From: Pendulispora albinea
Lineage (GTDB): Bacteria; Myxococcota_A; Polyangia; Polyangiales; Polyangiaceae
Reading direction: 5' to 3' (one strand)
Length of the DNA stretch: 32,000 bases
Assembly (NCBI RefSeq): GCF_037157815.1
Contig: NZ_CP089984.1
The translations under genes and the position numbers were made by a program. Position 1 is the stretch's first letter. Each line of letters opens with the position of its first letter. The notes below the pieces were generated by a model. The model ran no database searches. It saw only the letters and a list, made by a program, of their open reading frames with translations, and was not told where the DNA came from. Shown in pieces: positions 10,807-31,154 of the stretch.

Positions 10807-10807
10807 T

Positions 10808-11228: not shown

Positions 11229-11271
11229 CGCCTGCGTTTCCCGCGAGGGAGCGCAGGCGTCGTGCTTTTTT
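11229..11271 (+). terminator. Hairpin plus T-run directly after rnpB (candidate intrinsic terminator)
   Basis: CGCCTGCG (11229-11236) pairs perfectly with CGCAGGCG (11252-11259). The inner stem is TCCC/GGGA, closed by a GCGA (GNRA) tetraloop. Then comes TCGTGC and T6 (11266-11271). The 6-nt gap between stem and T-run is atypical. Confidence 0.55.
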
Positions 11272-11620
11272 GCGGCCGCGTTCCGCGAGGGGTCGCCGGC
11301 GTCGTGCTTTTTTGCGGCCGCGTTTCCGCGAGGGGTCGCAAGTGTCGTGCTCTTTGCGCCCCGTTCACCGCGAGGGGGTCGCCGGTGTCGCGATTTTTTG
11401 CGGCCACGTTCCGCGAGGGGTCGCCGGCGTCGTGCTTTTTGCGCCGCGTTCACCGCGAGGGGTCGCCGGCGTCGTGCTTTTTTGCGGCCGCGTTTCCCGC
11501 GAGGGACCGTGTCGTGCTTTTTGCGGCCGCGTTCCGCGAGGGGTCGCCGGTGTCGCGCTTTTGCGCCCGTTCACCGCGAGGGGTCGCAAGTGTCGTGCTT
11601 TTTGCGCCCGTTCACCGCGG
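11259..11620 (+). repeat. Tandem array of 8 full and 1 partial ~42-bp (40-43 bp) units reiterating the rnpB terminator module
   Basis: Unit starts: 11259, 11301, 11344, 11387, 11429, 11471, 11511, 11552, 11592. Consensus is GTCGTGCTTTTTTGCGGCCGCGTTCCGCGAGGGGTCGCCGGC. Two subtypes exist: ...GCGGCCGCGTT(T)CC(C)GCGAGGG and ...GCGCC(C)CGTTCACCGCGAGGGG. Units abut head to tail with no unique spacers. The last unit supplies the stop codon of the convergent SDR gene. Confidence 0.95.
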
Positions 11621-13498: not shown

Positions 13499-13515
13499 CG
13501 TGCGTCGATGGTAGA

Positions 13516-14469
13516 ATGAGCGCCGTCATGCGGCCGCTCTTTGCCGATCCTCGAACCGACTACGCATTCAAGGCGATCTTCGGTACGGAAGAGCACAAGC
13601 CGTTGCTCGTCGCGCTGCTGAACGATCTCTTGGAGCTCGACGAGGCGCATCGGGTGGTGCAGGTGGAGTTGCTGTCGGCAGAACAGCGTCCGAAGGTAAG
13701 TGAGCTCAAACACTCCATCGTCGACGTGAAGTGCCGCGATGCACGCGGCACCACGTACGTGGTCGAGATGCAGGTGCTCAATGTGGAGGGCTTCGAGAAG
13801 CGCGTCGTCTACAACGTGGCCAAGGCCTACACGAGCCAGCTGGGGATCGGGGAGCATTACCCGACGCTGAACGACGTCATCGGCGTGACCATCTGCGATT
13901 TCAACCTCTGGCCGGAGGCGGAGGTGCCGCTCTTGAGCCGCTGGCGCATGCAGGAGCAGCACACGCGGCGGGTCGGCTTGCCCGAGCTCCAGTTCGTCTT
14001 TTTGGAGCTGCCAAAGCTCGACCGAACGCGCGAGCCGCAAACGGTGATTGAAAAGTGGGCCTACTTCTTCCGCGAGGCCTCGAAGCTGAAATCCGTTCCG
14101 CCCGTGCTCGCGCAAAAACCCCACCTCGACGCGCTGGATGCTGCCCGCACCGCCCGATTCTCCGAGGAAGAGTGGGAGGCGTACATCCGCGCGGGCATGG
14201 CCATTCAAGACGAGCGCGGCGCGCTCTCGCTCGCCCGGCGGGAGGGGCGCGAAGAGGGCCACAAAGAGGGGCACAAGGAAGGGCACACGGAGGGCCAGCT
14301 TATCCAAGCTCGCACCACACTGCGCCGCGTGCTGCGCGCACGCGGGCTCGCCATCTCCGCCGAGGACGAGGCCCGCATCGATGCGTGCTCCGACCTCGCC
14401 ACCCTCGACCAATGGCTCGATCGCAGCCTCACCGCCGACACGGTCGCGGCCGCCCTCACATCGGCATAG
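13516..14469 (+). CDS. Rpn-family (YhgA-like, PD-(D/E)XK) recombination-promoting nuclease / putative transposase
   Basis: The in-frame part of track ORF 12802..14469 starts at MSAVMRPLFADPRTDYAFKAIFG. It continues ...SIVDVKCRDARGTTYVVEMQVLN...VIGVTICDF...LQFVFLELPK (D...D/E-x-Q/K nuclease core as in TIGR01784-type proteins). The C-terminal helical tail contains EGHKEGHKEGHTEG. Confidence 0.8.
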   Translation: MSAVMRPLFADPRTDYAFKAIFGTEEHKPLLVALLNDLLELDEAHRVVQVELLSAEQRPKVSELKHSIVDVKCRDARGTTYVVEMQVLNVEGFEKRVVYNVAKAYTSQLGIGEHYPTLNDVIGVTICDFNLWPEAEVPLLSRWRMQEQHTRRVGLPELQFVFLELPKLDRTREPQTVIEKWAYFFREASKLKSVPPVLAQKPHLDALDAARTARFSEEEWEAYIRAGMAIQDERGALSLARREGREEGHKEGHKEGHTEGQLIQARTTLRRVLRARGLAISAEDEARIDACSDLATLDQWLDRSLTADTVAAALTSA

Positions 14470-14478
14470 ACTCGGCCG

Positions 14479-15393
14479 CTAAGCGGCTTTGCCGGTCGTC
14501 GCAACAGGCGTCTCCGCCTCGGCGACCATCGCGCCCTTCATCTCCAGCTCCTGACCGAGACGCCGGCGCAACTTCATCTTGGCACGCGACTCGATTTGGC
14601 GGGCCCGCTCGCGCGACACGCCCAGGCGGCGTCCGATTTCGGCGAGGCTCAGCTCGTCGGGATCGTCGGCCATCACGCGGACGGTGACGATGTAGCGCTC
14701 GCGTGGATCGAGCTCGTCGAGCGCTTCGCGCACCCGGTGCTCGATCTCGTGCGTGCGCTCGTAGCGCAGAAAGCGCTCTTCCTGCGAGGGAAGCGGGGAG
14801 GGGAGCGCGTCGACAATCGATGCGGTCGTATCGTCGTGGGCCTTGGTGTCGAGCGACAGATCGCGCGCCTCCACCCGCTGCGCGAGCTGCGAGATCTTTT
14901 CCTTGGTGGTGCCAAAACGGCTCGCGAGCTGTTCGGCGACTTCGTCCGAGTCGGAGGTGAGCGCCGAGATTTTTGCTTTCTCCCTTCGGAGTCGAAAGAA
15001 CACCTTGGAGCGCAACGGACCGGCTCCAACGCCCACGATGCTCCACGCGCGAATCACGTAGTCGAGAATGTACGCGCGGATCCAGTGCGCGGCGTAGGTC
15101 ACGAAACGCGTTCCGCGGTCGGGATCGAATTTCCGAAGGGCGGTCATCAGGCCCACATTTCCCTCGGAGATCAGATCGGCAAGGCGCAGTCCGTAGCGGC
15201 GGTAGGTCAGAGCAATCGCGACCACGTGCCGCAAATTCGCCTCCACCAGCGCCCCCACGGCCTCGGGATCGCCGAGGTCGCGCACCCGCACGGCGAGTGC
15301 CCACTCGTCTTCGCGCGATAAAGCGGGTGCTCGCTGCACGCGCGCGATGTACCGCGAGACGCTCGAATTCGGATCGAGGGAACTCTTCATCAT
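14479..15393 (-). CDS. rpoH: RNA polymerase sigma factor, sigma-32 (RpoH)-like group 3
   Basis: ORF track 304 aa. Region 2: LVEANLRHVVAIALTYRRYGLRLADLISEGNVGLMTALRKFDPDRGTRFVTYAAHWIRAYI. RpoH-box-like: LRSKVFFRLRREK. Region 4: LSLAEIGRRLGVSRERARQIESRAKMKLR. Confidence 0.8.
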   Translation of the reverse strand: MMKSSLDPNSSVSRYIARVQRAPALSREDEWALAVRVRDLGDPEAVGALVEANLRHVVAIALTYRRYGLRLADLISEGNVGLMTALRKFDPDRGTRFVTYAAHWIRAYILDYVIRAWSIVGVGAGPLRSKVFFRLRREKAKISALTSDSDEVAEQLASRFGTTKEKISQLAQRVEARDLSLDTKAHDDTTASIVDALPSPLPSQEERFLRYERTHEIEHRVREALDELDPRERYIVTVRVMADDPDELSLAEIGRRLGVSRERARQIESRAKMKLRRRLGQELEMKGAMVAEAETPVATTGKAA

Positions 15394-15843: not shown

Positions 15844-16167
15844 TCAAGCCGAAAAAGACGACCCGCAACCGCAGGTGCCTTTGACATTCGGGTTGTTGAA
15901 TTTGAACCCGGAGCCGTGCACGCCCTCGACGTAGTCGATCTCCGTCTCCTCCAGGTACTGGTGGCTGAGCGGGTCGACATACAGCTTGACGCCGTTGGAC
16001 TCGTATTCCTCGTCCATCTCGCCAACCGCGTCCTCGAAATAAAGGTCGTAGCTGAAGCCGGCGCAACCACCGCCAACGACGCGCAAACGCAACCCTTGCC
16101 CCTCGAGGGCCTCGGCGGAGGCGATCTCTTTGACCTTCGTGGCGGCTTTCTCAGTGATGGTGATCAT
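15844..16167 (-). CDS. erpA: A-type iron-sulfur cluster carrier (ErpA/IscA, HesB family)
   Basis: ORF track 107 aa. Motifs: LRLRVVGGGCAGFSYDLYF and C-terminal GTCGCGSSFSA (the three conserved Cys). A perfect TATAAT lies on the minus strand at 16181-16186, 14 nt upstream of the ATG. Confidence 0.9.
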   Translation of the reverse strand: MITITEKAATKVKEIASAEALEGQGLRLRVVGGGCAGFSYDLYFEDAVGEMDEEYESNGVKLYVDPLSHQYLEETEIDYVEGVHGSGFKFNNPNVKGTCGCGSSFSA

Positions 16168-16257
16168 AGTGATTGTGGCGATTATACGGACGGAGCCGCA
16201 TCCGCGCCAGGGGAGCCCCCCGAGATTCCCGCGCCGCGCTGCCCCTGCGGCTCGCGC

Positions 16258-19421: not shown

Positions 19422-19760
19422 CTACGGCTCGCGCGCTTCCGAGCTCTCTTCGGAGGTCTCGCGTGAGCTCGCGCTCGTGCGAATCACACCGTTGAAGCGT
19501 TGCCATCGGCGTTCGAGCGCCTTTCGGTCCATGCCGAGCACGCGCGCTGCCTCGCTCTTGTTGTGACCACAGTTTCGCATCGTGACGGCGATGGCCGCGC
19601 GTTCGATTGCTTCTAATTTGCTTCCCAAGCTGCCTGGGAGGGCGAGCAGCTGGGTCGCCATCGCCTCCAGCTCACTCGTCGTGGAAAGCGCCACGATCGC
19701 TTGAGCCGATTCGCGGCTCCCGTCCATTGCATATTCGTCCTCGACAATCGGAGCGCTCAT
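19422..19760 (-). CDS. Stand-alone Fis-type helix-turn-helix DNA-binding protein
   Basis: ORF track 112 aa. The C-terminal LEAIERAAIAVTMRNCGHNKSEAARVLGMDRKALERRWQRF matches the Fis/NtrC C-terminal HTH pattern. No AAA+ or receiver domain is present. Confidence 0.6.
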   Translation of the reverse strand: MSAPIVEDEYAMDGSRESAQAIVALSTTSELEAMATQLLALPGSLGSKLEAIERAAIAVTMRNCGHNKSEAARVLGMDRKALERRWQRFNGVIRTSASSRETSEESSEAREP

Positions 19761-20105
19761 GTGAAGTAAGAGGGCACGCGAGCTGAAACAGAGCCGTAGA
19801 TGCCCGTGATATTCCTAACCCTTTTTGGGCGCAAACTTCAAGCAATCACGCTTCGACATCGCGATCGATCGACGGATGTCGTCGAAACACCGAGAAAATG
19901 CGTGGTTGCCCCACGGCCAATCCCGTCCATTCTTTGGACGAATTCGGGCGAGCGATGATTCCGTGCAGGGTTGTTGTCGCCCTTTCCCAACAAAGTAAAC
20001 TGGCCCGACCAGTTCTCGAAAGGTTCCGAAAGCCGCCTTTGAAAGCTGTCCCCCGAAAGCTCTCTGAAAAGCTCCCTAAAAAACCTATGCAAACGGCGAG
20101 CCCCC

Positions 20106-21269
20106 ATGTCATCCGTTGAGCTCCATCGTGCCCGTACGCTCGTCGCCGATCCGAAGGAAGCGGCGGAGCGTCTTCTCGAGCAGCTGCCCTCGGCCGCGAC
20201 GCCGAAACTCGTCACCGTCTTCGCCTCCCGAGGCTACGACCAACTCGCCTTGAACCGCGCCCTGCGCGAACGCCTCCCCAAGGGGACGCGGATCGTGGGG
20301 ACCACCAGCTCCGCGGAGCTCGACAACGAAGGTATCCATGAGCGCTCCATTGTCTTAGGGGCGTTGTCGGGGGACTTCGAGGTGGGCTTGGGCGTGGGGC
20401 GCGACTTGTCCCAAGACGCCATCGTATCCGGAAATGTGGCCATCTCCTCGGCCTGCGATCAGCTGGGCATCGCCCCGGTGAACCTCGGTTCCCGCCACGT
20501 TGGAATGGTGATCGACGACGCCTTTCGTTACAAGAAGGAGGAGTTCCTTCTCGGGATGCTGGAACCCAACCCGGCGCTGGTCCTGGTCGGCGGCGGAGCG
20601 TCCGATATGGAGCTCGATCCCGCCAAACAGAGCGCGCAGATGCACGTCGATGGCGACGTGGTCACCGACGCCGTCGTCGTCGCGCTGTTCAAGACCGACG
20701 TGCGCTGGGCCGCGATGCGCTCGCACTGGTACGTACCCACTGGCCGCACCTTGCGCGTGACGCGGGTGGACGAGACGTGTACGCGCGCCCTCGAAATCGA
20801 CGGAAAGCCTGCCGCCAAGCGTTACGCCGAGCTGCTCGGCGTGTCGCCGGAGGATCTGGAGTTCGGCAAGCCCCGTGGCTTCGCCACCCAGCCTACGGCG
20901 CTGCGCGTCGGACGCGAATACTTCGTGCGGGCGCCCTGGAAGCCGCTCGACGATGGCTCCATCCTCTTCGCCAACCTGCTCGAGGAGGGGACGGAGCTCG
21001 AGATCATGCAGCTCGGCGACATCGTTCGCTCCACCACGCACTTTTTTCAAGAGGAGCTCCCCTTCCGCGTCGGCAACCCCAGCGCGGTCCTCCTCTTTCA
21101 GTGCAGCGGGCGACAATGGTTCGCCGATGCGACCGGTCAGCGGGCCGAGCTGGCCAAAACGTTCGCGGCGGCGCCGCCGGCCGTCGGCTTCAATTGCTAC
21201 TTCGAAATATACTGCGGGTTCCATATCAACACGACCCTCACCGCGCTGGCGTTCGGATCCACCTCGTGA
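20106..21269 (+). CDS. FIST-domain sensor protein (FIST_N + FIST_C)
   Basis: ORF track 387 aa. FIST_N-like: KLVTVFASRGYDQLALNRALRERLPKGTRIVGTTSSAELDNEGI. FIST_C-like: AVLLFQCSGRQWFADATGQRAELAKTF...AVGFNCYFEIYCGFHINTTLTALAF (F-x-C-x-G-R and G-E-I...H-N-x-T patterns). Confidence 0.8.
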   Translation: MSSVELHRARTLVADPKEAAERLLEQLPSAATPKLVTVFASRGYDQLALNRALRERLPKGTRIVGTTSSAELDNEGIHERSIVLGALSGDFEVGLGVGRDLSQDAIVSGNVAISSACDQLGIAPVNLGSRHVGMVIDDAFRYKKEEFLLGMLEPNPALVLVGGGASDMELDPAKQSAQMHVDGDVVTDAVVVALFKTDVRWAAMRSHWYVPTGRTLRVTRVDETCTRALEIDGKPAAKRYAELLGVSPEDLEFGKPRGFATQPTALRVGREYFVRAPWKPLDDGSILFANLLEEGTELEIMQLGDIVRSTTHFFQEELPFRVGNPSAVLLFQCSGRQWFADATGQRAELAKTFAAAPPAVGFNCYFEIYCGFHINTTLTALAFGSTS

Positions 21270-24079
21270 AGAAAATCGTCGTCGCACAGTCTCGAATCTC
21301 ACCACCTGGCACGCCGCCGCGCCTCCTCGTCGCGCTCCCTTCGGGGGATGCCGTCGCCGCCGTCTCCGAGGAGCTCGCGCGCTGGAACGTCACCTCCGAG
21401 AGCCGGACGGTGCACACCGCCTCCGAGCTCGAGGAGGCGCTCGCGAGCGCCTGGGATCTGCTCGTCTTTGGCGCGGAGTTCTTCCCCGCCGTCCGAGCTG
21501 GGGCCCACGAAGGGCGCTCGGTGCTCGTCACCCGCGCCCACGATCCCGCGCTCGAGCGCGAGGCCATCGCGGCCGGCGTTCGGGACGTCATCGAGCTGGG
21601 TCGCATCGGCCGGCTCACGGCCGTCCTCGAGCGCGAGATCGCGTGCGTCCGCCGCCACGGTGCCTTGGCCGCCAAGGCGACCCTGCTCGAGGGCGCCATC
21701 GATGCGCTCCCGTTCATCGTCTTCGTCAAGGAGGCGGCGACCCTGAAGCAGGTCTTCGCCAACCAAACCTTCGCCGACGCGTTTCATACCACCAAGGACT
21801 GGCTGGTCGGCAAGCACGATCACGAGTACTTCCCCGAGGACCAGGCGGAGTCGTTCGCCGTCATCGACCGCGAGGTGCTGCGCAACCAGGAGATGAAGAC
21901 GTTCGAGGAGATCGCCCGCACCGACGGCATCAACCGCACGTACCTCACGCGCAAAGCGGCGCTCCTCGACGAGCACGGCAACTCGGCCTATTTGCTCGGC
22001 GTCACGGAGGATATCACCGAGCGCAAACGCACCGAGGAGGCGCTCCGCCGCACCCGCGAGCTCTCGGCCCGCACCTTGGCCGGCTACCAGCGGCGCGTGC
22101 TGCAGATGGAGATCATCCGCCAGCAGAACGAAGATCTGGAGCGGCTCTCGGCCGACTTGGTGCGCGCCAAGCGCATCGAGGAGGAGCGCGCCCGCGAAAT
22201 CGAAGCGGCCGCGCGCCTCAAGAGCGAGTTTTTGGCGAACTTCTCCCACGAGATCCGCACCCCGCTCAACGGCATCCTCGGCTACTGCGATCTCTTGATG
22301 CGCGGCGAGGGGACGCGCCTCACGCCGCACGGCCGGCGCGACTTGAACGTCATCAAGACCAACGCCAAGACGCTCTTGTCCCTCATCAACGACATCCTCG
22401 ACCTCTCCAAGATCGAGGCGGGCCGCATCGAGATCGTGCGCGAGCGGGTCGACGTGACGGAGCTCATCGAAGAGTCGGCCGCCACCATCAAGGAGCTGAT
22501 TCGCAGCAAGGACGTCGAGCTGGTCACCCACGTGGCCGACAACGCGGCCCTGGCCTTCACCGACTCGCTCAAGCTGCGGCAGATCATCCTGAACCTGCTC
22601 TCCAACGCCGCCAAGTTCACCGACACCGGCGAGATCCACGTGTCGGCCAGCGCCACCGGCGACGATCTGGTCATCGAGGTGGAGGACACCGGCGTGGGCA
22701 TCCCCGCCGAGGAGCTCCGCAACATCTTCGAAAAATTCCGCCAGGTCGATGGCTCCAGCACCCGCCGCGCCGGGGGCACCGGGCTCGGTCTGGCCATCGT
22801 GCGCGAGCTCGCCCGCGTGCTCGGAGGCACGGCCTCGGTCACCAGCGCCGTCGGCCGCGGCTCCAAGTTCACCGTCATTCTACCGGGCGCCATCGACGCC
22901 GGCCGGGTCACCCCGCCCGTGGAAAATCCGAATGTCATCGCCCGCGCCCTGCCCGTCGACGGATGCAGCGTGCTCGTGGTCGACGACGATCCCATGGTGC
23001 AAACCCTCGTCCGCAGCGAGCTGGAGACGGCCGGGTTCACGGCCATCGTGGTGGGCGACGGGGTGCAGGCGCTCCAGCAGGCGCGCGCCCGAAGGCCCAA
23101 TGTCATCTTGCTCGATCTGCACCTGCCCAAGCTTCACGGGTGGGACGTGCTCACCGAGCTCAAAAGCGATCCGGCGCTCTCCAGCATCCCGGTGGTCATC
23201 GTCTCGGTGGAGGAGCAGCGCGCCCGCGGCTTCTCCATGGGCGCGTGCGAGTACCTGGTCAAACCCGTGGAGTCCGACCACCTGGTCAGCGTGGTGCGCC
23301 GCGTGATTGCGCCCGGCGGCGGCGAGGTCCTCATCGTCGACGACGACGCGGCCACCCGGGAGCTCGTGACCCGCGTGCTGCAAGGCCACGGCTTCCCCAC
23401 CGCCGATGCGCGCGATGGCTCCGAGGCGCTGGTTCGGATGAAGGTCAGCCCGCCATCGCTCCTCATTCTCGATCTGGTCATGCCCAAGGTCGATGGCTTC
23501 GAGGTGATTCGCCGCATGCGGGCCGAGGGGCCCAATGTCCCGGTGGTCGTGCTCACCGGCAAGGATTTGAGCAAGGTCGAGGAGCAGGAGCTCTCCGAGG
23601 CGTTTACCCGCATCGTCCGAAAGGGCGGGCTCGCCATGGCGGACTTGGTCGCAGAAGCTCGCCGGTTGGTGGTCGAGCAGCGGGTCCAGCAGAAGGAGCG
23701 CCTGCCGCGCATCCTCTATGTGGAGGACTCCGCGCAGAACCGCGACATCGTGCGCCGCTATTTGGAGCCGGAGTTCAATGTTTTCGAGGCGGAGGACGGC
23801 GAGCACGGCCTGGAACGTGCTCAGCGCGATGCCCCCGATCTGGTGCTCATGGATTTGTCGTTGCCACGAATCGACGGGTGGGAGGCCACCCGACGTATCA
23901 AGTCAGACCCTAGACTTCGCCACCTCCCCGTGGTTGCACTCACAGCCCGCGCAGGCACCGAGGACCGCGAGCGGGCCGACAGCGCCGGGTGCGCGGACTA
24001 CTTGACCAAACCGGTCGAACGCGAGCTCCTCATTTCCACCATCCGCAAACACCTCCGGGGGCGCGCCGGGCATGGATAA
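21266..24079 (+). CDS. Hybrid sensor histidine kinase: N-terminal pseudo-receiver, PAS, coiled coil, HisKA, HATPase_c and three receiver domains
   Basis: The GTG at 21266 overlaps the FIST stop (GTGA). PAS: LPFIVFVKEAATLKQVFANQTF...YLLGVTEDITERKRTEEAL. H-box: FLANFSHEIRTPLNGILGY. G-boxes: VEDTGVGIP and GTGLGLAIVRELARVLGG. REC1: VLVVDDDPMV...VILLDLHLPKLHGWD. REC2: VLIVDDDAATRE...LLILDLVMPKVDGFE. REC3: ILYVEDSAQNRD...LVLMDLSLPRIDGWE...YLTKPV. The N-terminal ~130 aa look receiver-like but lack the DD pocket and phospho-Asp (LLVFGAEF). Confidence 0.9.
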   Translation: MKKIVVAQSRISPPGTPPRLLVALPSGDAVAAVSEELARWNVTSESRTVHTASELEEALASAWDLLVFGAEFFPAVRAGAHEGRSVLVTRAHDPALEREAIAAGVRDVIELGRIGRLTAVLEREIACVRRHGALAAKATLLEGAIDALPFIVFVKEAATLKQVFANQTFADAFHTTKDWLVGKHDHEYFPEDQAESFAVIDREVLRNQEMKTFEEIARTDGINRTYLTRKAALLDEHGNSAYLLGVTEDITERKRTEEALRRTRELSARTLAGYQRRVLQMEIIRQQNEDLERLSADLVRAKRIEEERAREIEAAARLKSEFLANFSHEIRTPLNGILGYCDLLMRGEGTRLTPHGRRDLNVIKTNAKTLLSLINDILDLSKIEAGRIEIVRERVDVTELIEESAATIKELIRSKDVELVTHVADNAALAFTDSLKLRQIILNLLSNAAKFTDTGEIHVSASATGDDLVIEVEDTGVGIPAEELRNIFEKFRQVDGSSTRRAGGTGLGLAIVRELARVLGGTASVTSAVGRGSKFTVILPGAIDAGRVTPPVENPNVIARALPVDGCSVLVVDDDPMVQTLVRSELETAGFTAIVVGDGVQALQQARARRPNVILLDLHLPKLHGWDVLTELKSDPALSSIPVVIVSVEEQRARGFSMGACEYLVKPVESDHLVSVVRRVIAPGGGEVLIVDDDAATRELVTRVLQGHGFPTADARDGSEALVRMKVSPPSLLILDLVMPKVDGFEVIRRMRAEGPNVPVVVLTGKDLSKVEEQELSEAFTRIVRKGGLAMADLVAEARRLVVEQRVQQKERLPRILYVEDSAQNRDIVRRYLEPEFNVFEAEDGEHGLERAQRDAPDLVLMDLSLPRIDGWEATRRIKSDPRLRHLPVVALTARAGTEDRERADSAGCADYLTKPVERELLISTIRKHLRGRAGHG

Positions 24080-24479
24080 AAAGCGGGCCCGCATCCTCGC
24101 CGTCGACGACGATCCTTTGCAGTTGGACCTTTTGTACAGGGGGCTTACCCTGGAGGGATTCGAAGTAGCCACCCACGAGGGTCCCATTGGCGTCACCAAC
24201 ATGGTGCGCGCATTTCGCCCCGACATCGTACTCTTGGACCTCAACATCCCGAGCTTGCGCGGTGACCGGCTCATCGAGCTGATTCGCCGCGCCGCCGGGC
24301 CGAACACCAAGTACTTCTTGCTTTCCGCCAGCGACGAATCGGAGCTTCGCTTACGCGCAGCCGAAACGAGTGCTCACGGTTGGCTCTCGAAAAGTCTTAC
24401 AATGAACGAGATTGCCCATCGACTTCGAGAGATCCTATCGCCTCCATCGGAAGGTCCGGTATCGAGGCGTCCACGGTAG
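24072..24479 (+). CDS. Single-domain CheY-like response regulator receiver
   Basis: ORF track 135 aa. Motifs: RILAVDDDPLQLDLL and DIVLLDLNIPSLRGD. There is no output domain. The ATG overlaps the kinase 3' end by 8 nt. Confidence 0.85.
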   Translation: MDKKRARILAVDDDPLQLDLLYRGLTLEGFEVATHEGPIGVTNMVRAFRPDIVLLDLNIPSLRGDRLIELIRRAAGPNTKYFLLSASDESELRLRAAETSAHGWLSKSLTMNEIAHRLREILSPPSEGPVSRRPR

Positions 24480-24485
24480 CATCCG

Positions 24486-24517
24486 CCGTATGAGACGTAG
24501 TATCGTCCGTACGAGAC
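24486..24517 (+). promoter_or_regulatory. Direct repeat CCGTA(T/C)GAGAC x2 with 21-bp register in the 67-nt gap upstream of the TDO-like gene
   Basis: CCGTATGAGAC (24486-24496) and CCGTACGAGAC (24507-24517), with a third GAGAC at 24522-26. A good SD (GAGGGGG) precedes ATG 24547. The functional assignment is inference. Confidence 0.3.
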
Positions 24518-24546
24518 CAGCGAGACTGGGGTAGAGGGGGATAAGC

Positions 24547-25467
24547 ATGGAAAGCATTTCCTCCAAGAAAGCGTTTCGGAGTGCGCGGGCCGAGACGCTG
24601 AATACAGCGCTCCAAGCGCCACTCGAGAACCGCTACTTGGGAAGGCCCGTGGGGGCGGGCCTGCTCGATTACGAGATTTACCTGCGGACGTCGGAGCTGC
24701 GCTCGCTGCAGTCGTCGCCCAGCGATCTCGTCGTCCCCGACGAAATGTTGTTTCAAGTGACGCACCAGAGTCAGGAGCTCTGGCTCAAATTGGCCGCATT
24801 CGAGTCGGTCACCCTCGTCGAGGCCATCGACACCGACGACCTTTGGGCCGCGTGCGAGACCTTGAAGCGCCAGGTGCTGGTGATGCGAAACCTGGAGCAC
24901 GAGCTGGGGGTCATCTCCACCTTGTCGCCCGAAGCGTTCCTCGTCATACGCAAATTCCTCGGAAATGGCAGCGGGCTCCAATCGCCAGGCTACTTCGAGT
25001 TGCTCCTCGGGGCCGAGAGCTGCAACGAAGCACTGCATCAATTGCTCGAACGGCGCGCGGCCAAGCTTCGAGACGTGTACGAGTCGCCCTCCCGATATCG
25101 CGATTTGCACCACATATGCGAGCTGTTTCTCGATTGGGACGCCGGATTCCAATTGTGGCTCACCGCGCATTTTTCGCTGGTCCGTCGCACGTTGGGCATC
25201 GATCGCACGGTCAAAGCGCTCGACGGCTTCCCCACGGTTGCCCTCGGTCCCCGCACCACCAAGCCGCTGTTCCCCGCGCTCTGGGAGATTCGCGTCGAAA
25301 TGTCGCGCGTCTGGACCCGCGAGGGCGGCCCGACCCCCGGGGCCCGACCGCGTTCGCCTTCGGAGGGCCGCGCGCCCAGCCACCCCAGCGTGGTGGCCAG
25401 TCCGCTGGTGGCCTGCGACGAAGACAGCGCATCGGGCGTGCGCACCGGTTTCCGGAACCGGAAATGA
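24547..25467 (+). CDS. Tryptophan 2,3-dioxygenase (TDO)-superfamily heme protein, divergent
   Basis: ORF track 306 aa. LDYEIYLRTSELRSLQ...DEMLFQVTHQSQELWLKL matches the TDO L-x-Y-x-x-Y-L...DE-x-LF-I-x-HQ-x-x-ELW-x-K block (distal His). LSPEAFLVIRKFLGNGSGLQS aligns to F-R-x-Y-L-x-x-x-SGFQS. WLTAHFSLVRRTLG aligns to W-R-x-x-H-x-x-M-V-x-R-x-x-G (proximal His). The following GTGGSSG motif is absent. Confidence 0.7.
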   Translation: MESISSKKAFRSARAETLNTALQAPLENRYLGRPVGAGLLDYEIYLRTSELRSLQSSPSDLVVPDEMLFQVTHQSQELWLKLAAFESVTLVEAIDTDDLWAACETLKRQVLVMRNLEHELGVISTLSPEAFLVIRKFLGNGSGLQSPGYFELLLGAESCNEALHQLLERRAAKLRDVYESPSRYRDLHHICELFLDWDAGFQLWLTAHFSLVRRTLGIDRTVKALDGFPTVALGPRTTKPLFPALWEIRVEMSRVWTREGGPTPGARPRSPSEGRAPSHPSVVASPLVACDEDSASGVRTGFRNRK

Positions 25468-26630
25468 GCGAGGCGCTCGACGTCGTACGATTGCGGGCGC
25501 AGTTCCCGCAATTGGAGCAGTGCGTTTATCTCAATAGCAACTCCACCGGCATCGTGCCGAAGGGCGCCAAGGCGGTGCTCCAGGACTATTGGGAGACCCT
25601 CGCCCATTGGCGCGATGACGCGTGGGCCGTCTGGTGGACCGAGCTGCACCGCTACGCCGACGATCTGGCGGCTTTTCTGGGCGCCCCCGCCGGCTCGGTG
25701 ATCTGCGACGTCAATGTCGCCACCTTGCTGGGCCGATTCGCGAGCGCGCTCGACTACACGCCGAGCGGCCCCGCGGCGAAGTACCGCATCGTGACCAGCG
25801 ATTTGGAGTTTCCGACCGCCAAGCCCCTCTTTCGAGGCTTGGCCCGCGCGGGCGCGGAGACGGACGTCGTCCCGTCACGCGATGGTTTCAGCATCGACGA
25901 ACGAGCCGTGATCGACGCCATCGATGCGCGCACGCGCCTCGTTTTTCTCTCGCTCGCCACCTCCAATACCGGGGCGCTGCTCGACCTTTCGGGCATCGTC
26001 GCCAAGGCGCACGAGGTGGGCGCATTGGTGGCGGTCGACGCCTATGCCGCGCTGGGAATCGTTCCGCTGGACGTCACCGAGCTGGGGGTCGACGTCCTCT
26101 TCGGCGGCGCCAGCAAATGGCTGTGCGGCACCTACCACGCGGCCTTCATGTACATCCGGCCGGAGCTCACCGCCACCCTTACGCCGCTCACCCCCGGGTG
26201 GATGGCCACGCGCGAGCCGCTCACCTTCCAGCCCCAGGGCGAGCTGGCCGAGGGGGCGCGGCGCTTTGCCGGGGGCACGCCGCTGGTGCTTCCTCTTCTG
26301 ATCGCGCGGGTCGGCTTCGAGTTGATGCGCACGTTTGGCATCGTCCACCTTCGGGCGCTCTCCCTCGCGCACACCCAGCGCGTGATCGACCACGCGGACG
26401 GCGCGGGCCTGACGGTGGCCACCCCGCGCGAGCCAAGCCGGCGCGCAGGGATGGTCTGCCTTCGGTTCGAGGGCGACGAGGACGTGGCGCGCGCGCTCGT
26501 GGGGCGCCAGATGATCTGCAGCTACCGGGGCGGGTTGCGCATCGGGCCGCACGCATTCAACACGGCGGGCGAAATCGACACCTTTATGCGCACCCTCATC
26601 GAGCTGGCCAAGGCCCGGGGGCGTGGGTGA
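25464..26630 (+). CDS. Kynureninase-like PLP-dependent enzyme (aminotransferase class V fold)
   Basis: The ATG at 25464 overlaps the TDO-like stop (ATGA). It is colinear with remembered Pseudomonas kynureninase: LRAQFPQLEQCVYLNSNSTG vs LRQQFALPEGVIYLDGNSLG; YRIVTSDLEFPT vs RVIVTETSNFPTD; VDAYAALGIVPLDVTELGVDVLFGGASKWLCG vs [33 protein letters not shown] (PLP Lys); TPGW; RRFAGGTP vs ARYLCGTQP. Confidence 0.7.
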   Translation: MSEALDVVRLRAQFPQLEQCVYLNSNSTGIVPKGAKAVLQDYWETLAHWRDDAWAVWWTELHRYADDLAAFLGAPAGSVICDVNVATLLGRFASALDYTPSGPAAKYRIVTSDLEFPTAKPLFRGLARAGAETDVVPSRDGFSIDERAVIDAIDARTRLVFLSLATSNTGALLDLSGIVAKAHEVGALVAVDAYAALGIVPLDVTELGVDVLFGGASKWLCGTYHAAFMYIRPELTATLTPLTPGWMATREPLTFQPQGELAEGARRFAGGTPLVLPLLIARVGFELMRTFGIVHLRALSLAHTQRVIDHADGAGLTVATPREPSRRAGMVCLRFEGDEDVARALVGRQMICSYRGGLRIGPHAFNTAGEIDTFMRTLIELAKARGRG

Positions 26631-27676
26631 GCGGCGAGGCCGCCGAGCCGTTCTCACCGCGGGCTCTTTTGAGCCTGCTCTTCAACGCCAGCAAAGGCCT
26701 CGATGTAGTTCGTGCCTCGCTCGATCTCGGCGTTCTGGCGCGCCTCGATCGGGGCCCCGTCACCTTGGGCGAGCTGGCGCACGAGACGGGCGCGGTTCCG
26801 CTGCGGCTTTACAAGCTGCTCGACGCGCTGGAGACCTTGGGCTTCGTTCGCCGCGAAGATCTCGGAAACGAGCTCGAAACGACGCGCTACACCGCGCGCG
26901 AGCCCTTGGAGGCCGCCGCGCGCGCGGTCTTGGGCGAGGGCTCGATCGAGCGCGATCGGGACAAGTACCCCTGGCGCATCCTGGAAGGAAAATTGCCCGC
27001 CACCTTGCGCGGCGAGCATCACATCCCCCGCGCGGCGTTCGACTGGCCTCCGTCCACCTTCGAGCAGTTCGAGCAGTTCGAGGCCAGCATGGCCGCGGGC
27101 GTCCCACCCATCGCCGAGGCGTTTCGTGCGGCGCACGATGACCTTTTTTCCTTTGGCGGCGCCGGCGCGGATCCCGTGCGCTGGCTCGATATCGGCGGCG
27201 GCGATGGGGCGCTGGCCGCCTCGGTCCTCGCGGCCGACGCCCGCGTCACGGCCGATGTGTACAACCTCGGCATGACGGAGCCGCTCGTGCGAAAGCGCGC
27301 GCGCGACGCGGGCCTCGAGGGCAGGCTCGGGTTCGTGGCCGGCGATTTCGCGAACGAGGAGCTCCCGGGCGGCTACGACGTCGTCTCCTTCGTGCGCGTG
27401 CTGCACGACTGGCCGGCCCCGTTCTCGCGCATGCTGCTCGACAAGGCCACGCGGGCGCTCGCACCCGGAGGCCGCCTCGTGGTGTGCGAAGAGTTCCGAA
27501 CGCGCGAGCGCTTGGCGATTCAATTTTTCTGGACCTATTTTCTGATCGGTGTCGATTCGTGCGTGAGCCGCTTGCGCGAGGTCGAATTCTATGTCGGCGA
27601 GCTCGCGAGGCGCGGTTACCGCGATCTCCTCGTGCGCCCCGGTGCGTTCGATGTCCTCGTCGCGACGCGCGCGTGA
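26627..27676 (+). CDS. Class I SAM-dependent O-methyltransferase, family 2 (COMT/ASMT-like, with N-terminal wHTH dimerisation domain)
   Basis: The GTG at 26627 overlaps the preceding stop (GTGA). N-terminal: DLGVLARLDRGPVTLGELA. SAM motif I: WLDIGGGDGALA. Also FVAGDF, and catalytic-His block SFVRVLHDWP typical of Methyltransf_2 O-methyltransferases. Confidence 0.8.
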   Translation: MSGEAAEPFSPRALLSLLFNASKGLDVVRASLDLGVLARLDRGPVTLGELAHETGAVPLRLYKLLDALETLGFVRREDLGNELETTRYTAREPLEAAARAVLGEGSIERDRDKYPWRILEGKLPATLRGEHHIPRAAFDWPPSTFEQFEQFEASMAAGVPPIAEAFRAAHDDLFSFGGAGADPVRWLDIGGGDGALAASVLAADARVTADVYNLGMTEPLVRKRARDAGLEGRLGFVAGDFANEELPGGYDVVSFVRVLHDWPAPFSRMLLDKATRALAPGGRLVVCEEFRTRERLAIQFFWTYFLIGVDSCVSRLREVEFYVGELARRGYRDLLVRPGAFDVLVATRA

Positions 27677-28034: not shown

Positions 28035-29831
28035 ATGGGGCGGGCAAATGCGGCTTTCTATCTCGCGTTGGTAGCGAGCGTGTCGGGAGGACTGCTCAGC
28101 GGTGCGTGCGTTTCGGCGGACGCGGGCGAGTCCAATGCGGCGTCCCCCGATGAGGGCGCCGCTTCTACGGTTGAAGCGTCATTGATGTCCCACGCACCAA
28201 CCACGCGCCAAACGCCGATCGCGCTCGCGCTCGACGTGGACAATGGAAAAGGGACTCCCATCCAGGTTCGCTCGGGGCAAACGTTCTTTCTCAATCAACT
28301 CGATTTGCGCGCAGGCTTCGACACCGACGTGGACGAAGGCCTCGACGGACTGCGTCGTCACGGTGACTTCTCCGATCTTTCCTGGCGGGGGCTCGAAAAG
28401 GCGGACGAATCCGCCCTGGACGCGCCGGATGCCACCACCCGCTTGTTTACCAATCGCCGTTTCTATCGCAATGCGCGGTGGATGAACGAGCGTTCGTTTT
28501 TCGTCCTCGAGCAGCTGGACACGCGCGGCCGGCCCACATCGTTCCCCCTGCTGTACGACGCGGGGGTGGATCGGGACCGGCGTGATTCGGATTCCTTTTT
28601 CGTGCGAAGGACGCGCGGCATTCAGTGGACGTTCGATTGCGCCACCCGAACGGATTGCCGCAGGGCAAAGCGATTTCGCGAGGAGGCTTTGGTCGAGCTG
28701 CGCAACACCCTCCACCCGGAAAAGACCTTCGTCATCGCCAAGGCGACCACGCAATTCCGATTGACTTGGTCGCTCCATCCGACCCGCAGCTACACCATCC
28801 CCGTCGCGCAAGATCCATCGCCTGCCTTCGATTACGGATTTCAGATCGACGTGAAGGCGCTCACGGCGCCCCGGGCCGATGGAACGTACCCGCCGGGATC
28901 GAATATCAAATTCAAATTGACCCTCCGGGACGGCGCCGGCAATCGGCTGCACCCGGAGGGCTCGCTCCCGACGTACAACGATGTGCGCTTCGGGCGTGTA
29001 GATAGTGGCATATATTATTATCGCGCCTTCTTCGACGCGACCACCACGTACTACCGCCGCAAGCACCGTGAACGGATGCTCATGAGCACCTTGGAGGGGC
29101 CGGCCCAGGATATCCAGGCTGGACGCAATATCGTCCCCGGGAGCCTCTTCTTCGATCCCGAAATCGATGTTCAGCCCACGGCGCTGCCCGAGCGCGACGG
29201 CTTCCTGGCGGAGTTCCGGACGTTCCCCACCTCCCACGATTTGTTCGGGGGCGAGCGATTCTGGGACAATCCGGTGACCGATACGTGGGAATACCCCATT
29301 CCCGCCAACGCCAAGCCGGGCACCTATTACGTCACCACCAAAGGCCGCCGCGTCTACCGCGGCGAAGACATTCCGGCCACGCAAACGCTGAAGATCCAAA
29401 TCGGTTCGCCCGAGCCCACGACGACCCCCTTGCCCACCGGTCCGTGCAACACGTGCCACGCGGGCGGCTCGTCGCTGGCCGTGGTGGCCCACGCCAACCC
29501 GGATCGCGCCACCTGCACCGGGTGCCATGTGCCGTTGGAGTTCGAGCTCGAGGGGCCCGTCTACGTGCGCACACACTTCATCCATTCCCGCTCGAACCGG
29601 GTCGACGCGCGCATCGACCAATGTGAGAAGTGCCACCTCACGGCCGACAGCATCCAGCGCACCAGCAAATCGGCGTGCCTCTCGTGCCACAAGACCTACC
29701 CCCGCTGGCACGTCCAACGGTTCGGGCCGATTGACAACATGTACGTGGGGGAAACGTCGCAGCGAAGCTTCGACCAATGCACCTCGAGCTGCCATGCGAC
29801 GCACCCGGGGAGCAAACTCGGGCGGGAGTAG
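28035..29831 (+). CDS. Multiheme c-type cytochrome (probable lipoprotein) with a ~470-aa N-terminal domain of unknown function
   Basis: ORF track 598 aa. Signal peptide MGRANAAFYLALVASVSGGLLSGAC. The last ~130 aa carry CNTCH, CTGCH, CEKCH and CLSCH (four CXXCH) plus CTSSCH (CX3CH). SD AAAGGAAAA precedes the ATG. Confidence 0.75.
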   Translation: MGRANAAFYLALVASVSGGLLSGACVSADAGESNAASPDEGAASTVEASLMSHAPTTRQTPIALALDVDNGKGTPIQVRSGQTFFLNQLDLRAGFDTDVDEGLDGLRRHGDFSDLSWRGLEKADESALDAPDATTRLFTNRRFYRNARWMNERSFFVLEQLDTRGRPTSFPLLYDAGVDRDRRDSDSFFVRRTRGIQWTFDCATRTDCRRAKRFREEALVELRNTLHPEKTFVIAKATTQFRLTWSLHPTRSYTIPVAQDPSPAFDYGFQIDVKALTAPRADGTYPPGSNIKFKLTLRDGAGNRLHPEGSLPTYNDVRFGRVDSGIYYYRAFFDATTTYYRRKHRERMLMSTLEGPAQDIQAGRNIVPGSLFFDPEIDVQPTALPERDGFLAEFRTFPTSHDLFGGERFWDNPVTDTWEYPIPANAKPGTYYVTTKGRRVYRGEDIPATQTLKIQIGSPEPTTTPLPTGPCNTCHAGGSSLAVVAHANPDRATCTGCHVPLEFELEGPVYVRTHFIHSRSNRVDARIDQCEKCHLTADSIQRTSKSACLSCHKTYPRWHVQRFGPIDNMYVGETSQRSFDQCTSSCHATHPGSKLGRE

Positions 29832-29867: not shown

Positions 29868-30737
29868 GTGTACAGTGCGCCCGTGCGCGTCTGGATCCTG
29901 GGAAGCGGCTCGAGTGGCAACGCCACGATCGTCGAGGCCGGTGGCGCGCGGGTGCTCATCGATTGTGGGATGGGCCCGCGCGCCCTCGCGAACCGCATGG
30001 CGGCGCACGGGGCGGGCAAGCTTTACGCGGGGGATCTCGACGCCATCGTGGTCACCCACGAGCACCAGGATCACGTGGCGCATCTGGAGGCCCACGCCCG
30101 CACCTTCGATGCGCCTGTGTATTTGCACCACGGCATCGCGGCGCGCGAGGTTCGAGACCGCTACGAGGTGCGCCCGTACGAGGCGCGCGCGCCGTTTCGG
30201 GTGGGCCCGTTCTCCATCGAGGCGCTGTCCGTGCCCCACGATGCGCCGCAGGTGGCGCTTCGCATCGCCACCGAGCAACACGCCTTTGGCTTGGTGACCG
30301 ACGTGGGGCACGTTCCGCCGGACCTCGCGCCGTTTCTGGGCACGTGCGATGCGGCGTTGGTGGAGGCGAATTATTGCCCCGAGCTCCTTTGGATCGGGCC
30401 CTATCCGACGTTTTTGAAGCGCCGGGTCTCGGGTGGTCTGGGGCACCTGGCGAACCATGAGGCAGCCGAGCTGGCGTCCCGTTTGGTGGGAACGCGTCTG
30501 GCGCGCTTGGTGTTGGGGCATGTCTCGCGCACGAACAATGAGCCGGAACGGGCTCTGGCGGCCGTGCGGCAGAGGTCTGGTCCCCTCGATGTGCGAATGG
30601 TACGTCCTGGTGCTGTGTCCGTGCTCGACATGGCCTCCCTCGAGGCGGCTGCGTCGTCCGGAGCGCGTGGCAGCGTCACGAAAGCCGGCAAAAACGCCCG
30701 AAGAAGCGCAGCGGCGCAACTGACCTTCGGGTTCTAA
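29868..30737 (+). CDS. MBL-fold metallo-hydrolase, YycJ/WalJ-like
   Basis: ORF track 289 aa (GTG start). Motifs: VWILGSGSSGNATIVEAGGARVLIDCG, VVTHEHQDHVAHL (HxHxDH), SVPHDA, LVTDVGHV, EANYCPELLWIGPYPTFLKRRVSGGLGHLANHEAA and LGHVSRTNN. These run parallel to remembered B. subtilis YycJ blocks. Confidence 0.85.
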   Translation: MYSAPVRVWILGSGSSGNATIVEAGGARVLIDCGMGPRALANRMAAHGAGKLYAGDLDAIVVTHEHQDHVAHLEAHARTFDAPVYLHHGIAAREVRDRYEVRPYEARAPFRVGPFSIEALSVPHDAPQVALRIATEQHAFGLVTDVGHVPPDLAPFLGTCDAALVEANYCPELLWIGPYPTFLKRRVSGGLGHLANHEAAELASRLVGTRLARLVLGHVSRTNNEPERALAAVRQRSGPLDVRMVRPGAVSVLDMASLEAAASSGARGSVTKAGKNARRSAAAQLTFGF

Positions 30738-30767
30738 GCTTTCGAAGGCTTGGGATGGCATCGGGCC

Positions 30768-30800
30768 GGATTGGCCCGCCACCGCTCCTGGATTGGCCCG
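30768..30800 (+). promoter_or_regulatory. Perfect 11-bp direct repeat GGATTGGCCCG x2 (22-bp register) upstream of yggX
   Basis: Read directly at 30768-30778 and 30790-30800, which is 64-96 nt upstream of ATG 30864. The function is inferred only. Confidence 0.3.
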
Positions 30801-30863
30801 TCATGGCGCTGTCATTGCCCTGGGGTGGAACGACGGAGGAGCGAGTGGTAGAAGCACAACGCC

Positions 30864-31154
30864 ATGTCAGAAGAACGGATCGTCCATTGCCGCCTGCTCA
30901 AGAAAGACCTCCCTGGCTTGCAGAAGCCACCCTACAAGAACGAGCTCGGGCGACAGATTTACGAGCAGGTCTCCAAGGAGGCGTGGGACCGATGGTTGAA
31001 GGACTCGGTCAAATACATCAACACCTACCGCCTCGACCTCGCGTCGCCCGAGGGGCAAAAGTTCATGCTCAAGCAAGCCGCCGTCTACTTCGGCTTCGAA
31101 GAGGGCGATTTGGCCCCCACGGCCTTCGTGCCGCGCGACGACGAATCGAAGTGA
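30864..31154 (+). CDS. yggX: Fe(2+)-trafficking / oxidative-damage protection protein YggX
   Basis: ORF track 96 aa. RIVHCRLLKKDLPGLQKPPYKNELGRQIYEQVSKEAWDRWLKDSVKYINTYRLD parallels E. coli YggX ([52 protein letters not shown]). Confidence 0.9.
   Translation: MSEERIVHCRLLKKDLPGLQKPPYKNELGRQIYEQVSKEAWDRWLKDSVKYINTYRLDLASPEGQKFMLKQAAVYFGFEEGDLAPTAFVPRDDESK

Follow-up and report, generated by a model that had tools for sequence, protein, structure and literature searches.

Does a run of overlapping genes that encodes both a signalling unit and a set of putative tryptophan-acting enzymes form a functional whole, or do the two halves merely share a neighbourhood? This question is raised by a locus of Pendulispora albinea, contained in a 32,000-nt stretch of DNA (the window; G+C ~68%), in which six plus-strand coding sequences between positions 20106 and 27676 encode a FIST sensor protein, a hybrid histidine kinase, a single-domain receiver, a protein related to tryptophan 2,3-dioxygenase (TDO), a pyridoxal phosphate (PLP) enzyme and a methyltransferase. 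An original prediction, made from the letters of the window, had proposed a self-contained module in which a phosphorelay senses or controls the production of an O-methylated molecule derived from tryptophan or another aromatic amino acid. Comparison with related loci leads us to a modified reading, to which we assign a probability of about one half: a conserved myxobacterial neighbourhood couples a haem-based signalling unit to a small tryptophan-acting biosynthetic cassette.

Gene organisation of the locus

The six genes, their order and all five junctions were confirmed exactly as predicted. The genes for the FIST protein (20106..21269, 387 amino acids (aa)) and the kinase (21266..24079, 937 aa) meet at GTGA (21266–21269), and the kinase gene overlaps that of the receiver (24072..24479, 135 aa) by the eight nucleotides ATGGATAA (24072–24079). 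The TDO-like gene (24547..25467, 306 aa) follows after a gap of 67 nt (24480–24546), in which no terminator-like hairpin was found and in which a ribosome-binding site, GAGGGGG, precedes the ATG at 24547. The junction to the PLP gene (25464..26630, 388 aa) is ATGA (25464–25467), and that to the methyltransferase gene (26627..27676, 349 aa) is GTGA (26627–26630). Pendulispora rubella and two soil metagenome contigs have the identical gene order and overlaps, with a receiver-to-TDO-like gap of 108 nt in P. rubella and 29 nt in the soil contig L002.

The predicted lack of an output domain in the FIST, kinase and receiver proteins was borne out by Pfam, which gave no Hpt domain either. The same held for the rest of the kynurenine pathway: formamidase, kynurenine monooxygenase and 3-hydroxyanthranilate dioxygenase were all absent from a Pfam scan of the coding-looking open reading frames (ORFs) of the window.

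Conservation of the neighbourhood

We mapped the surroundings of the TDO-like gene by tblastn with the window proteins, in 80 loci from a one-genome-per-species scan and in five look-up loci; the counts given here are for 82 non-redundant TDO-like-anchored loci, in samples ranked by similarity that include some near-duplicates. The methyltransferase gene adjoins the TDO-like gene in 79 of the 82, the other three having less than 0.8 kb of downstream flank. The PLP gene adjoins in 63 and is missing in 19, namely loci of Myxococcus, Pyxidicoccus, Cystobacter and Archangium, together with two from Acidobacteriota. The TDO-like and methyltransferase genes, in most loci joined by the PLP gene, thus form an autonomous cassette (hereafter cassette A) that occurs in Myxococcota (46 loci), Acidobacteriota (15 loci), Actinomycetota (20 loci) and one cyanobacterium, whose single locus (L028) carries the trio without a FIST, kinase or cytochrome gene.

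Conservation of the neighbourhood, which the original prediction had named as a test, was found in Myxococcota, where FIST and kinase genes stand beside the cassette in 24 of the 28 loci whose flanks reach 6 kb or more in each direction. Rearranged layouts keep the neighbourhood, which is divergent in Labilithrix (L022, L035) and convergent in L083, and the co-cistronic layout of FIST and hybrid kinase genes is kept in all myxobacterial loci carrying both. The claim that the module is self-contained did not survive: all 20 Actinomycetota and all 15 Acidobacteriota cassettes lack the signalling genes, and two Archangium operons contain the signalling genes without the enzymes.

Further genes accompany the cassette in particular groups. 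Myxococcaceae loci have a DLH-type hydrolase and a REC+GerE regulator after it, the DLH gene following the methyltransferase gene in 13 loci; no kynB-type formamidase was a recurrent neighbour among the recurrent ORF clusters of the first 85 loci, which were scanned with Pfam and NCBIfam. As a separate observation, a CrtI/CrtO-family flavoprotein (Amino_oxidase, 535 aa) is encoded near the trio in 11 Actinomycetota loci (nine Nocardia, Jiangella and Microlunatus), so that some members of this phylum may have a cassette of four genes. Its gene is immediately adjacent in L053, L057, L059, L070, L073, L077, L081 and L085 (~12942–14560) and in L071 and L076 (~8334–9962), and lies further off, on the opposite strand, in L082 (18790–20361).

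A pentahaem cytochrome as a seventh member

A seventh conserved member of the neighbourhood, absent from the original prediction, is a pentahaem lipoprotein cytochrome c (28035..29831, plus strand, 598 aa; Cytochrom_c3_2 at 27.6 bits, plus haem motifs). Found in 34 of the 46 Myxococcota loci, 8 of the 15 from Acidobacteriota and none of the 20 from Actinomycetota, its gene lies directly upstream of the FIST gene in most myxobacterial loci, downstream of the methyltransferase gene in Pendulispora and in L043, and next to the TDO-like, PLP and methyltransferase genes in Acidobacteriota. Among 28 homologues, which are 51–79% identical, four CXXCH motifs and one CX3CH motif are all invariant. The NCBI annotation places the start ~50 codons later (excluding 28035–28184), giving a protein of 548 aa without signal peptide and lipobox; we favour the longer, 598-aa form because Met1 and Cys25 of the lipobox (LSGAC) are invariant in the same 28 homologues. 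The N-terminal ~450 residues, which have no Pfam match, are beta-rich and gave generic Ig-like fold matches only, with TM-scores of at most 0.34.

With the cytochrome as anchor, we inspected six genome or long-contig look-ups and 79 more loci from a metagenome scan; these are inspection counts and include some near-duplicates. Among the six look-ups, three have cassette A, one has a different set of genes described below (cassette B) and two have neither. In Archangium gephyra (L086, 10001–17278) and A. violaceum (L087, 9001–16231), the cytochrome, FIST, kinase and receiver genes are followed directly by a NarL-type (REC+GerE) regulator, with no TDO-like or methyltransferase genes before it, while other Archangium loci (L024, L030) have the cassette at that position, which indicates that it was gained or lost within this genus. 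Hyalangium and one JGI contig have the full trio, and Vitiosangium has the TDO-like and methyltransferase genes only. The metagenome loci comprise ~23 with cassette A, 13 with cassette B and, among those with enough flank, ~9 with neither. Four metagenome contigs (L097, L107, L148, L165) have the cytochrome directly beside cassette A without FIST and kinase genes; in L102 and L114 it stands beside a TDO-like gene, after which the contigs end. Accordingly, three modules are mostly together in Myxococcota, each being sometimes absent: the cytochrome, the unit of FIST, kinase and receiver, and a tryptophan-type cassette.

A second cassette at the same signalling unit

Cassette B brings together a prenyltransferase (Trp_DMAT), an iron enzyme (Haem_oxygenas_2) and a PLP enzyme whose domains are Aminotran_5 and KYNU_C, sometimes joined by FAD_binding_4 or a tryptophan halogenase, and its orientation varies between loci (L091 (1–8428), L120, L126–L128, L131, L135, L136, L139–L141, L147, L158 and L160). 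In L091, the FIST gene heads an operon with the Haem_oxygenas_2 iron enzyme and a FAD_binding_4 oxidase, beside which lie a tryptophan halogenase gene and a gene for a Trp_DMAT-PLP fusion protein; a halogenase gene also adjoins the cassette in L120. In L127, Trp_DMAT and Haem_oxygenas_2 are fused, and the Aminotran_5+KYNU_C enzyme follows (Pfam). The PLP domain of L091 and the window PLP enzyme share 36% identity (206 bits), and the latter scores only 107 bits against authentic kynureninase.

The two cassettes are parallel in composition, each having one enzyme predicted to activate oxygen, one predicted to transfer an alkyl group (methyl or prenyl) and a PLP enzyme of the same subfamily. Prenyltransferases of the Trp_DMAT type and tryptophan halogenases act on intact indoles. 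Because of this chemistry, and because cassette B has no ring-cleaving enzyme, its PLP enzyme most likely takes an amino acid with an intact indole, and the view that the window pair is nothing more than TDO with kynureninase becomes weaker. The recurrence of a second tryptophan-tailoring cassette at the same signalling unit also lends weight to the originally predicted link between signalling and an aromatic amino-acid-derived molecule.

The signalling half

The sensor protein consists of FIST_N and FIST_C regions (Pfam FIST, 105 bits; FIST_C, 54 bits) and aligns over its full length with the NCBIfam NosP model NF041558 (164.6 bits, E 3e-48; cut-off 450), and no solved structure was detectable by sequence search. 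NosP is a FIST-type haemoprotein that senses nitric oxide (NO), and haem in one species, and controls a co-cistronic hybrid kinase (PMC8846402, PMC11784011). The protein had been presumed to bind an amino acid; given the full-length alignment, a haem-binding sensor of NO or haem is the better comparison.

The soluble hybrid kinase contains PAS_4, HisKA, HATPase_c and three Response_reg domains (82, 76 and 91 bits) by Pfam, and scores 224.7 bits against the NCBIfam model of the NahK/ErcS-family C-terminus (near_NosP_CTERM; cut-off 400) and 155 against the NahK model (cut-off 1500). Its N-terminus has no Pfam match, even at E ≤ 1. A profile of eight orthologous N-termini, however, matched a receiver profile in hhalign with 95% probability (E 3.4e-8, 103 columns); since the phospho-Asp column of this receiver-like fold holds an invariant Gly and the DD pocket is lacking, we take it to be a pseudo-receiver, and the predicted arrangement of a pseudo-receiver plus three receivers was right. 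The single-domain receiver (Pfam Response_reg, 69.5 bits) keeps the DD pocket, the Asp of LLDLNIP and the Lys. Overall, the FIST/kinase pair resembles NosP/NahK, with a putative response to haem or NO.

A stand-alone Fis-type helix-turn-helix (HTH) protein of 112 aa (19422..19760, minus strand, divergent from the FIST gene; Pfam HTH_8, 43 bits) had been named as the sole nearby DNA binder. The HTH_8 assignment stands, and the gene is at this place only in the three closest loci (L001–L003); in other myxobacteria, in Myxococcaceae-type loci, a NarL-type REC+GerE regulator is encoded downstream, after the cassette, in its place. Between the HTH and FIST genes, a 345-nt intergenic region contains blocks that are kept in the Pendulispora clade. 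One of these (19968..20004, plus strand; GGGTTGTTGTCGCCCTTTCCCAACAAAGTAAACTGGC) hardly differs between P. albinea, P. rubella and a soil contig, in contrast to the bases around it. It holds an inverted repeat, TTGTTG-N11-CAACAA, and a sigma-70-like arrangement, TTGTCG-N16-TAAACT, and is a candidate promoter or operator. Two other ideas were dropped: a sigma-54 promoter, suggested by the Fis-type HTH, found no excess over chance in a pattern scan (7 matches against 11.4 expected), and periodic GAAAG(C) repeats at ~20020–20090 are not kept in relatives.

The enzymes of the cassette

The TDO-like protein passes the Pfam cut-off for Trp_dioxygenase (PF03301; 85.5 bits, cut-off 34.9) and scores 111.2 bits against the kynA equivalog model TIGR03036, the cut-off being 390.7, with a best stretch that aligns residues 40–158 only. 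Its closest solved relative by sequence is the TDO of X. campestris (E 2.5e-27), from which the distal His-Gln helix is almost indistinguishable, and MarE, a 2-oxindole-forming mono-oxygenase, is a weak relative (E 2e-4). The AlphaFold model (pLDDT 73), on the other hand, matches MarE best (E 5e-6, target TM-score 0.66), slightly ahead of TDO. Y42 and Y45 (YxxY), the distal H73, R135 and the proximal H208 are invariant in 30 homologues and align with the corresponding residues of X. campestris TDO. In place of the ammonium-binding GTGGS loop of TDO, the whole family has an invariant LDGFPT. The stretch from the Arg to the proximal His is ~35 residues shorter than in TDO, and the protein is assigned to a distinct short subfamily within the TDO superfamily.

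Among 1.84 billion representatives, 108 proteins matched the TDO-like profile at E ≤ 1e-30. The fetched matches form three groups: the close family, a second tier of ~240–260 aa, which matches the profile in one stretch, and canonical TDOs, which keep GTGGS and match in two. In the close family, P0241 is a clean in-frame 650-aa fusion of the TDO-like and PLP enzymes; P0251, considered as a second such fusion, reads as a frameshifted artefact. Members of the second tier (P0252, P0257, P0260, P0291, P0295) have a G.GT.SLKG loop in place of either GTGGS or LDGFPT. Long N-terminal regions fused to TDO-like domains, judged by eye only, look ATP-grasp-like in P0291 and NAD-dependent epimerase-like in P0260.

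The PLP enzyme scores 89 bits against Pfam Aminotran_5, 36.5 bits against KYNU_C (cut-off 27) and 69.2 bits against the kynureninase model TIGR01814 (cut-off 246.4). Its closest solved relative is P. fluorescens kynureninase (1qz9; E 1e-29 over residues 8–356, the next at 3e-12). Present in it are the PLP Lys, the FPT motif, whose Phe stacks on PLP in kynureninase, and the C-terminal Arg for the alpha-carboxylate (LRIGPH); Tyr226 and Asp132 of the P. fluorescens enzyme are replaced by Ser and Ala, respectively. Curated cut-offs exclude an ordinary kynA/kynU identity for both proteins, in agreement with the predicted divergence from the housekeeping forms.

The methyltransferase belongs to family 2 of the S-adenosylmethionine-dependent enzymes (Pfam Methyltransf_2, PF00891; 57.9 bits, cut-off 22.3), with a dimerisation domain that is borderline at 24.1 bits against a cut-off of 25.6. 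Its best named model is BchU (77 bits, cut-off 276); against the curated models for kynA, kynU and the named methyltransferases, all three window enzymes stay under the cut-off. The solved relatives, BchU-like, MmcR, DnrK, DsyB, SibL and ASMT, are all weak, and the predicted catalytic-His motif, VLHDW, is present.

We compared the hydroxylase/methyltransferase pair BifE/BifF directly with the window proteins. Membership of the TDO-like protein in the verified tryptophan-hydroxylase clade was rejected, as the match to the tryptophan 4-hydroxylase BifE is 20.4 bits by BLASTP (E 0.065; 25% over 167 residues), and the methyltransferase is a generic rather than a specific relative of BifF (25% identity). 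The methyltransferase had been predicted to need a phenol that TDO and kynureninase would not make. This requires qualification, since TDO homologues that hydroxylate tryptophan beside an O-methyltransferase are known (Arg5/Arg4, OhmK/OhmJ, BifE/BifF), although the window protein falls outside their clade.

The invariant His208, His73, Arg135 and YxxY of the TDO-like family, together with the PLP Lys and the alpha-carboxylate Arg of the PLP enzyme, support tryptophan as the probable substrate class, and the predicted reaction of the TDO-like protein is ring chemistry on L-tryptophan, either hydroxylation or formation of N-formylkynurenine. Fusions that would link successive steps are TDO-like with PLP (P0241), Trp_DMAT with PLP (L091) and Trp_DMAT with the iron enzyme (L127).

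Proposed mechanism

In the model that we favour, the haem enzyme would oxygenate the indole ring of L-tryptophan, preferably by hydroxylation, and the methyltransferase would cap the new hydroxyl, while the PLP enzyme would rework or remove the amino-acid side chain to leave a small molecule of the methoxy-indole type. The FIST protein would read this molecule, or the redox, NO or haem state that it reports, and modulate autophosphorylation of the kinase as NosP does with NahK. Phosphate would then pass to the internal receivers and the single receiver, and the output would be provided by contacts between proteins or by a separate regulator, which would be the Fis-type HTH protein here and the NarL-type protein in Myxococcaceae. 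The periplasmic cytochrome may oxidise or reduce the metabolite outside the cytoplasm.

Taken alone, the question of the chemistry leans tentatively towards hydroxylation, at somewhat less than an even chance; ring cleavage is the less likely of the two, and the remainder goes to other chemistry. We favour hydroxylation with O-methylation because the haem protein and the methyltransferase form a core that is always kept and the PLP gene can be dispensed with, because the methyltransferase His is typical of phenol O-methylation, and because three characterised pairs of a TDO homologue and an O-methyltransferase make 4-methoxy-tryptophan.

Several points weigh against this model. The distal His is kept, the sequence is much closer to ring-cleaving TDO than to BifE, and the BLASTP comparison (E 0.065) puts the haem protein outside the verified hydroxylase clade. 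Kynureninase, the nearest kin of the PLP enzyme, needs a ring-opened substrate in the canonical pathway, and the acceptor of the methyltransferase may be O, N, C or a carboxylate. On the signalling side, the FIST protein is far under the NosP cut-off, which makes haem or ligand binding putative, and the proposed logic as a whole leans on the likeness to NosP and NahK. Because the cytochrome is exported and the FIST protein and kinase are cytoplasmic, any link between them is indirect, and the simplest would be a diffusible redox-active product. Finally, since each half also occurs alone, the coupling is frequent but not obligatory.

A more specific form of the model would have the locus make its own membrane-permeant, redox-active signal of the indole type, with interchangeable cassettes supplying the molecule, the cytochrome performing a redox step on it and the FIST protein sensing it instead of NO. 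This extension is speculative and, as a whole, unlikely. If true, it would represent an unrecognised class of myxobacterial autoinducer or redox signalling and provide a small-molecule ligand for FIST domains.

Alternative explanations

The strongest alternative, which is still rather unlikely in our estimate, is a divergent kynurenine branch, in which the TDO-like enzyme would cleave the indole ring, giving N-formylkynurenine or an analogous compound, the PLP enzyme would release alanine and an (N-formyl)anthranilate-type acid, and the methyltransferase would act on the carboxylate or amine, for example to give a methyl-anthranilate-like volatile or signal precursor that the signalling genes regulate or respond to. 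The closeness of the haem protein to X. campestris TDO (E 2.5e-27), including the near-identical distal His-Gln helix and the invariant distal His, YxxY, Arg and proximal His, speaks for ring cleavage, although the GTGGS loop has become LDGFPT and ~35 residues are missing before the proximal His. Likewise, the PLP enzyme is nearest to kynureninase (E 1e-29), carries KYNU_C and the FPT motif, and is fused in frame to the TDO-like protein in P0241; set against this, Tyr226 and Asp132 are not kept, the kynA and kynU cut-offs are far from reached, and the same PLP subfamily serves cassette B, which has no TDO-like gene. Family-2 methyltransferases include the N-methylating PhzM and plant anthranilate N-methyltransferase, so that the third enzyme is compatible with such a branch. 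The loss of the PLP gene in 19 of the 82 loci, where the haem-protein/methyltransferase pair is kept, speaks against such a branch. The DLH-family alpha/beta hydrolase in 13 Myxococcaceae loci is a possible formamidase, against which stands the lack of a recurrent kynB-type neighbour among the recurrent ORF clusters.

According to a second alternative, which we consider improbable, the two halves have a shared neighbourhood and nothing more: the NosP/NahK-like unit would serve unrelated sensing of NO, haem or redox state, and the cassette would have been inserted at a permissive site between receiver and regulator. Its absence at exactly that site in two Archangium species and its presence in others, its autonomy in three other phyla and the ~9 cytochrome loci with enough flank but without any cassette speak for this explanation. 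Against it, the association survives inversions and reordering across several myxobacterial families, and the receiver-to-TDO-like gap is just 29–108 nt in the Pendulispora clade. Two unrelated tryptophan-type cassettes sharing one PLP subfamily stand beside the same unit, which is hard to explain by a permissive site, and the cytochrome accompanies the enzymes without FIST and kinase genes in eight Acidobacteriota loci and in four metagenome contigs (L097, L107, L148, L165).

A maremycin-like logic, in which the PLP enzyme would transaminate tryptophan, the resulting indolepyruvate would be C-methylated and the haem protein would mono-oxygenate the modified tryptophan (as MarG, MarI and MarE do), agrees with the structural match to MarE, with a TDO-like, PLP and methyltransferase trio that presumably matches the Mar gene set, and with a PLP gene whose loss could be tolerated if a housekeeping aminotransferase substitutes, but is highly improbable given the far weaker sequence match to MarE (E 2e-4) than to TDO (E 2.5e-27), a PLP enzyme that is kynureninase-like and no recognised aminotransferase, the lack of any MppJ/MarI-type keto-acid methyltransferase among the solved methyltransferase relatives and the lack of a cupin epimerase nearby.

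Significance

Myxobacteria are a model for bacterial social behaviour, and few of their diffusible signals are known chemically; this locus is a genetically testable candidate for a myxobacterial signal or redox mediator. If a haem-based signalling unit is indeed coupled to the cassette, the FIST/NosP domain would gain a new physiological context. Two uncharacterised enzyme subfamilies, the short LDGFPT-type TDO-like proteins and the kynureninase-like PLP enzymes that also partner prenyltransferases, are found in four phyla or more. With a cassette of only 3.1 kb, heterologous expression offers a direct way to look for its product.

Other features of the window

Small iron- or haem-related genes lie at 29868–31154 and 15847–16257, encoding proteins of the metallo-beta-lactamase fold, the Iron_traffic family (YggX-like) and the Fe-S_biosyn family (IscA-like); the metallo-beta-lactamase-fold and Iron_traffic genes are kept only in the Pendulispora clade (L001–L003). 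A PD-(D/E)XK nuclease-family transposase-like domain (PF12784, 149 bits, residues 250–474) is encoded at 12802–14469 (plus strand), beside a LysR regulator gene (12602–13498) that the long ORF overlaps, leaving its start ambiguous.

The window also contains three repeat regions. A 21-bp tandem repeat of 21.4 copies (84% match) occupies 8270–8719, with a G+C of 74.6% and a strong AT skew, and encodes GAPGSRS / IAALGSR heptads within a hydrophobic-rich 633-aa ORF (7902–9803, plus strand) that has no Pfam match. A non-coding array at 11234–11619 (a 42-bp unit in 9.2 copies or an 85-bp unit in 4.6, 82% match) lies between two minus-strand ORFs (9738–11024 and 11612–12508). The third, an 18-bp tandem repeat of ~5 copies at 5208–5300, is situated between a GcvT-like gene (4186–5190) and an ORF at 5323–6120.

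Comparison with known systems

A literature search, mostly outside subscription journals, found no description of this signalling/enzyme module, and the original prediction knew of no such architecture either. For the signalling half, the nearest described system is NosP/NahK (with NarR or HptB) of Pseudomonas, Legionella, Vibrio and Burkholderia. Both have a stand-alone FIST_N+FIST_C gene directly upstream of, and overlapping, a hybrid kinase gene. They differ in that the window kinase combines three receivers with a pseudo-receiver and has no known Hpt partner, in that the putative output is a bare receiver instead of a GGDEF/EAL protein, and in that genes for a multihaem cytochrome and biosynthetic enzymes are linked to the operon; both window proteins are, in addition, under the curated cut-offs.

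The window kinase is like RodK of Myxococcus xanthus in being a soluble myxobacterial hybrid kinase with three receiver domains; RodK signals to a single-domain receiver, and here such a receiver is encoded next to the kinase. The neighbourhoods are unlike, rodK (MXAN_0733) lying near socE (MXAN_0731) (PMC2129111, PMC4320627), and the two kinases are set side by side here by description only.

With KynA and KynU, the cassette shares two enzyme superfamilies, gene adjacency, the haem ligands, the carboxylate Arg, the PLP Lys and the FPT motif. It is unlike them in that both window enzymes are far under the equivalog cut-offs, a formamidase is absent, the methyltransferase is an obligatory partner and the PLP gene is dispensable in many loci. 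Cassette B, for its part, is reminiscent of indole tailoring of the aetokthonotoxin type (halogenase, PLP enzyme and haem-oxygenase-like iron enzyme), to which, by description only, it can be likened in combining a ring decorator (the prenyltransferase, sometimes a halogenase), a haem-oxygenase-like iron enzyme and a PLP enzyme, although the PLP enzyme of cassette B is of a different fold class, the kynureninase-like class V.

For the enzyme half, the closest known parallels are pairs of a TDO homologue and an O-methyltransferase. Arg5/Arg4 of argyrin biosynthesis form 4-methoxy-tryptophan (PMC8719831, PMC6902895), OhmK/OhmJ of the ohmyungsamycin cluster were linked to 4-methoxy-L-tryptophan by gene deletions (PMC6920865), and BifE/BifF of the biffamycin pathway make 4-methoxy-tryptophan in vitro (PMC13285481). 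Luz15, in which the TDO-like domain is at the C-terminal end, is a 5-hydroxylase with a TDO-like fold and the YXXY motif (PMC13091554). As in the three pairs, the window gene of the TDO superfamily adjoins a family-2 methyltransferase gene. The known hydroxylases OhmK, Ecu2 and BifE, however, have 359–384 aa, whereas the core of the window family has ~270, and BifE has a Val at the distal-His position and a GSGGT loop where the window protein has His73 and LDGFPT. Moreover, the known pairs belong to non-ribosomal peptide synthetase clusters and have no kynureninase-like partner, whereas the window pair is accompanied by one.

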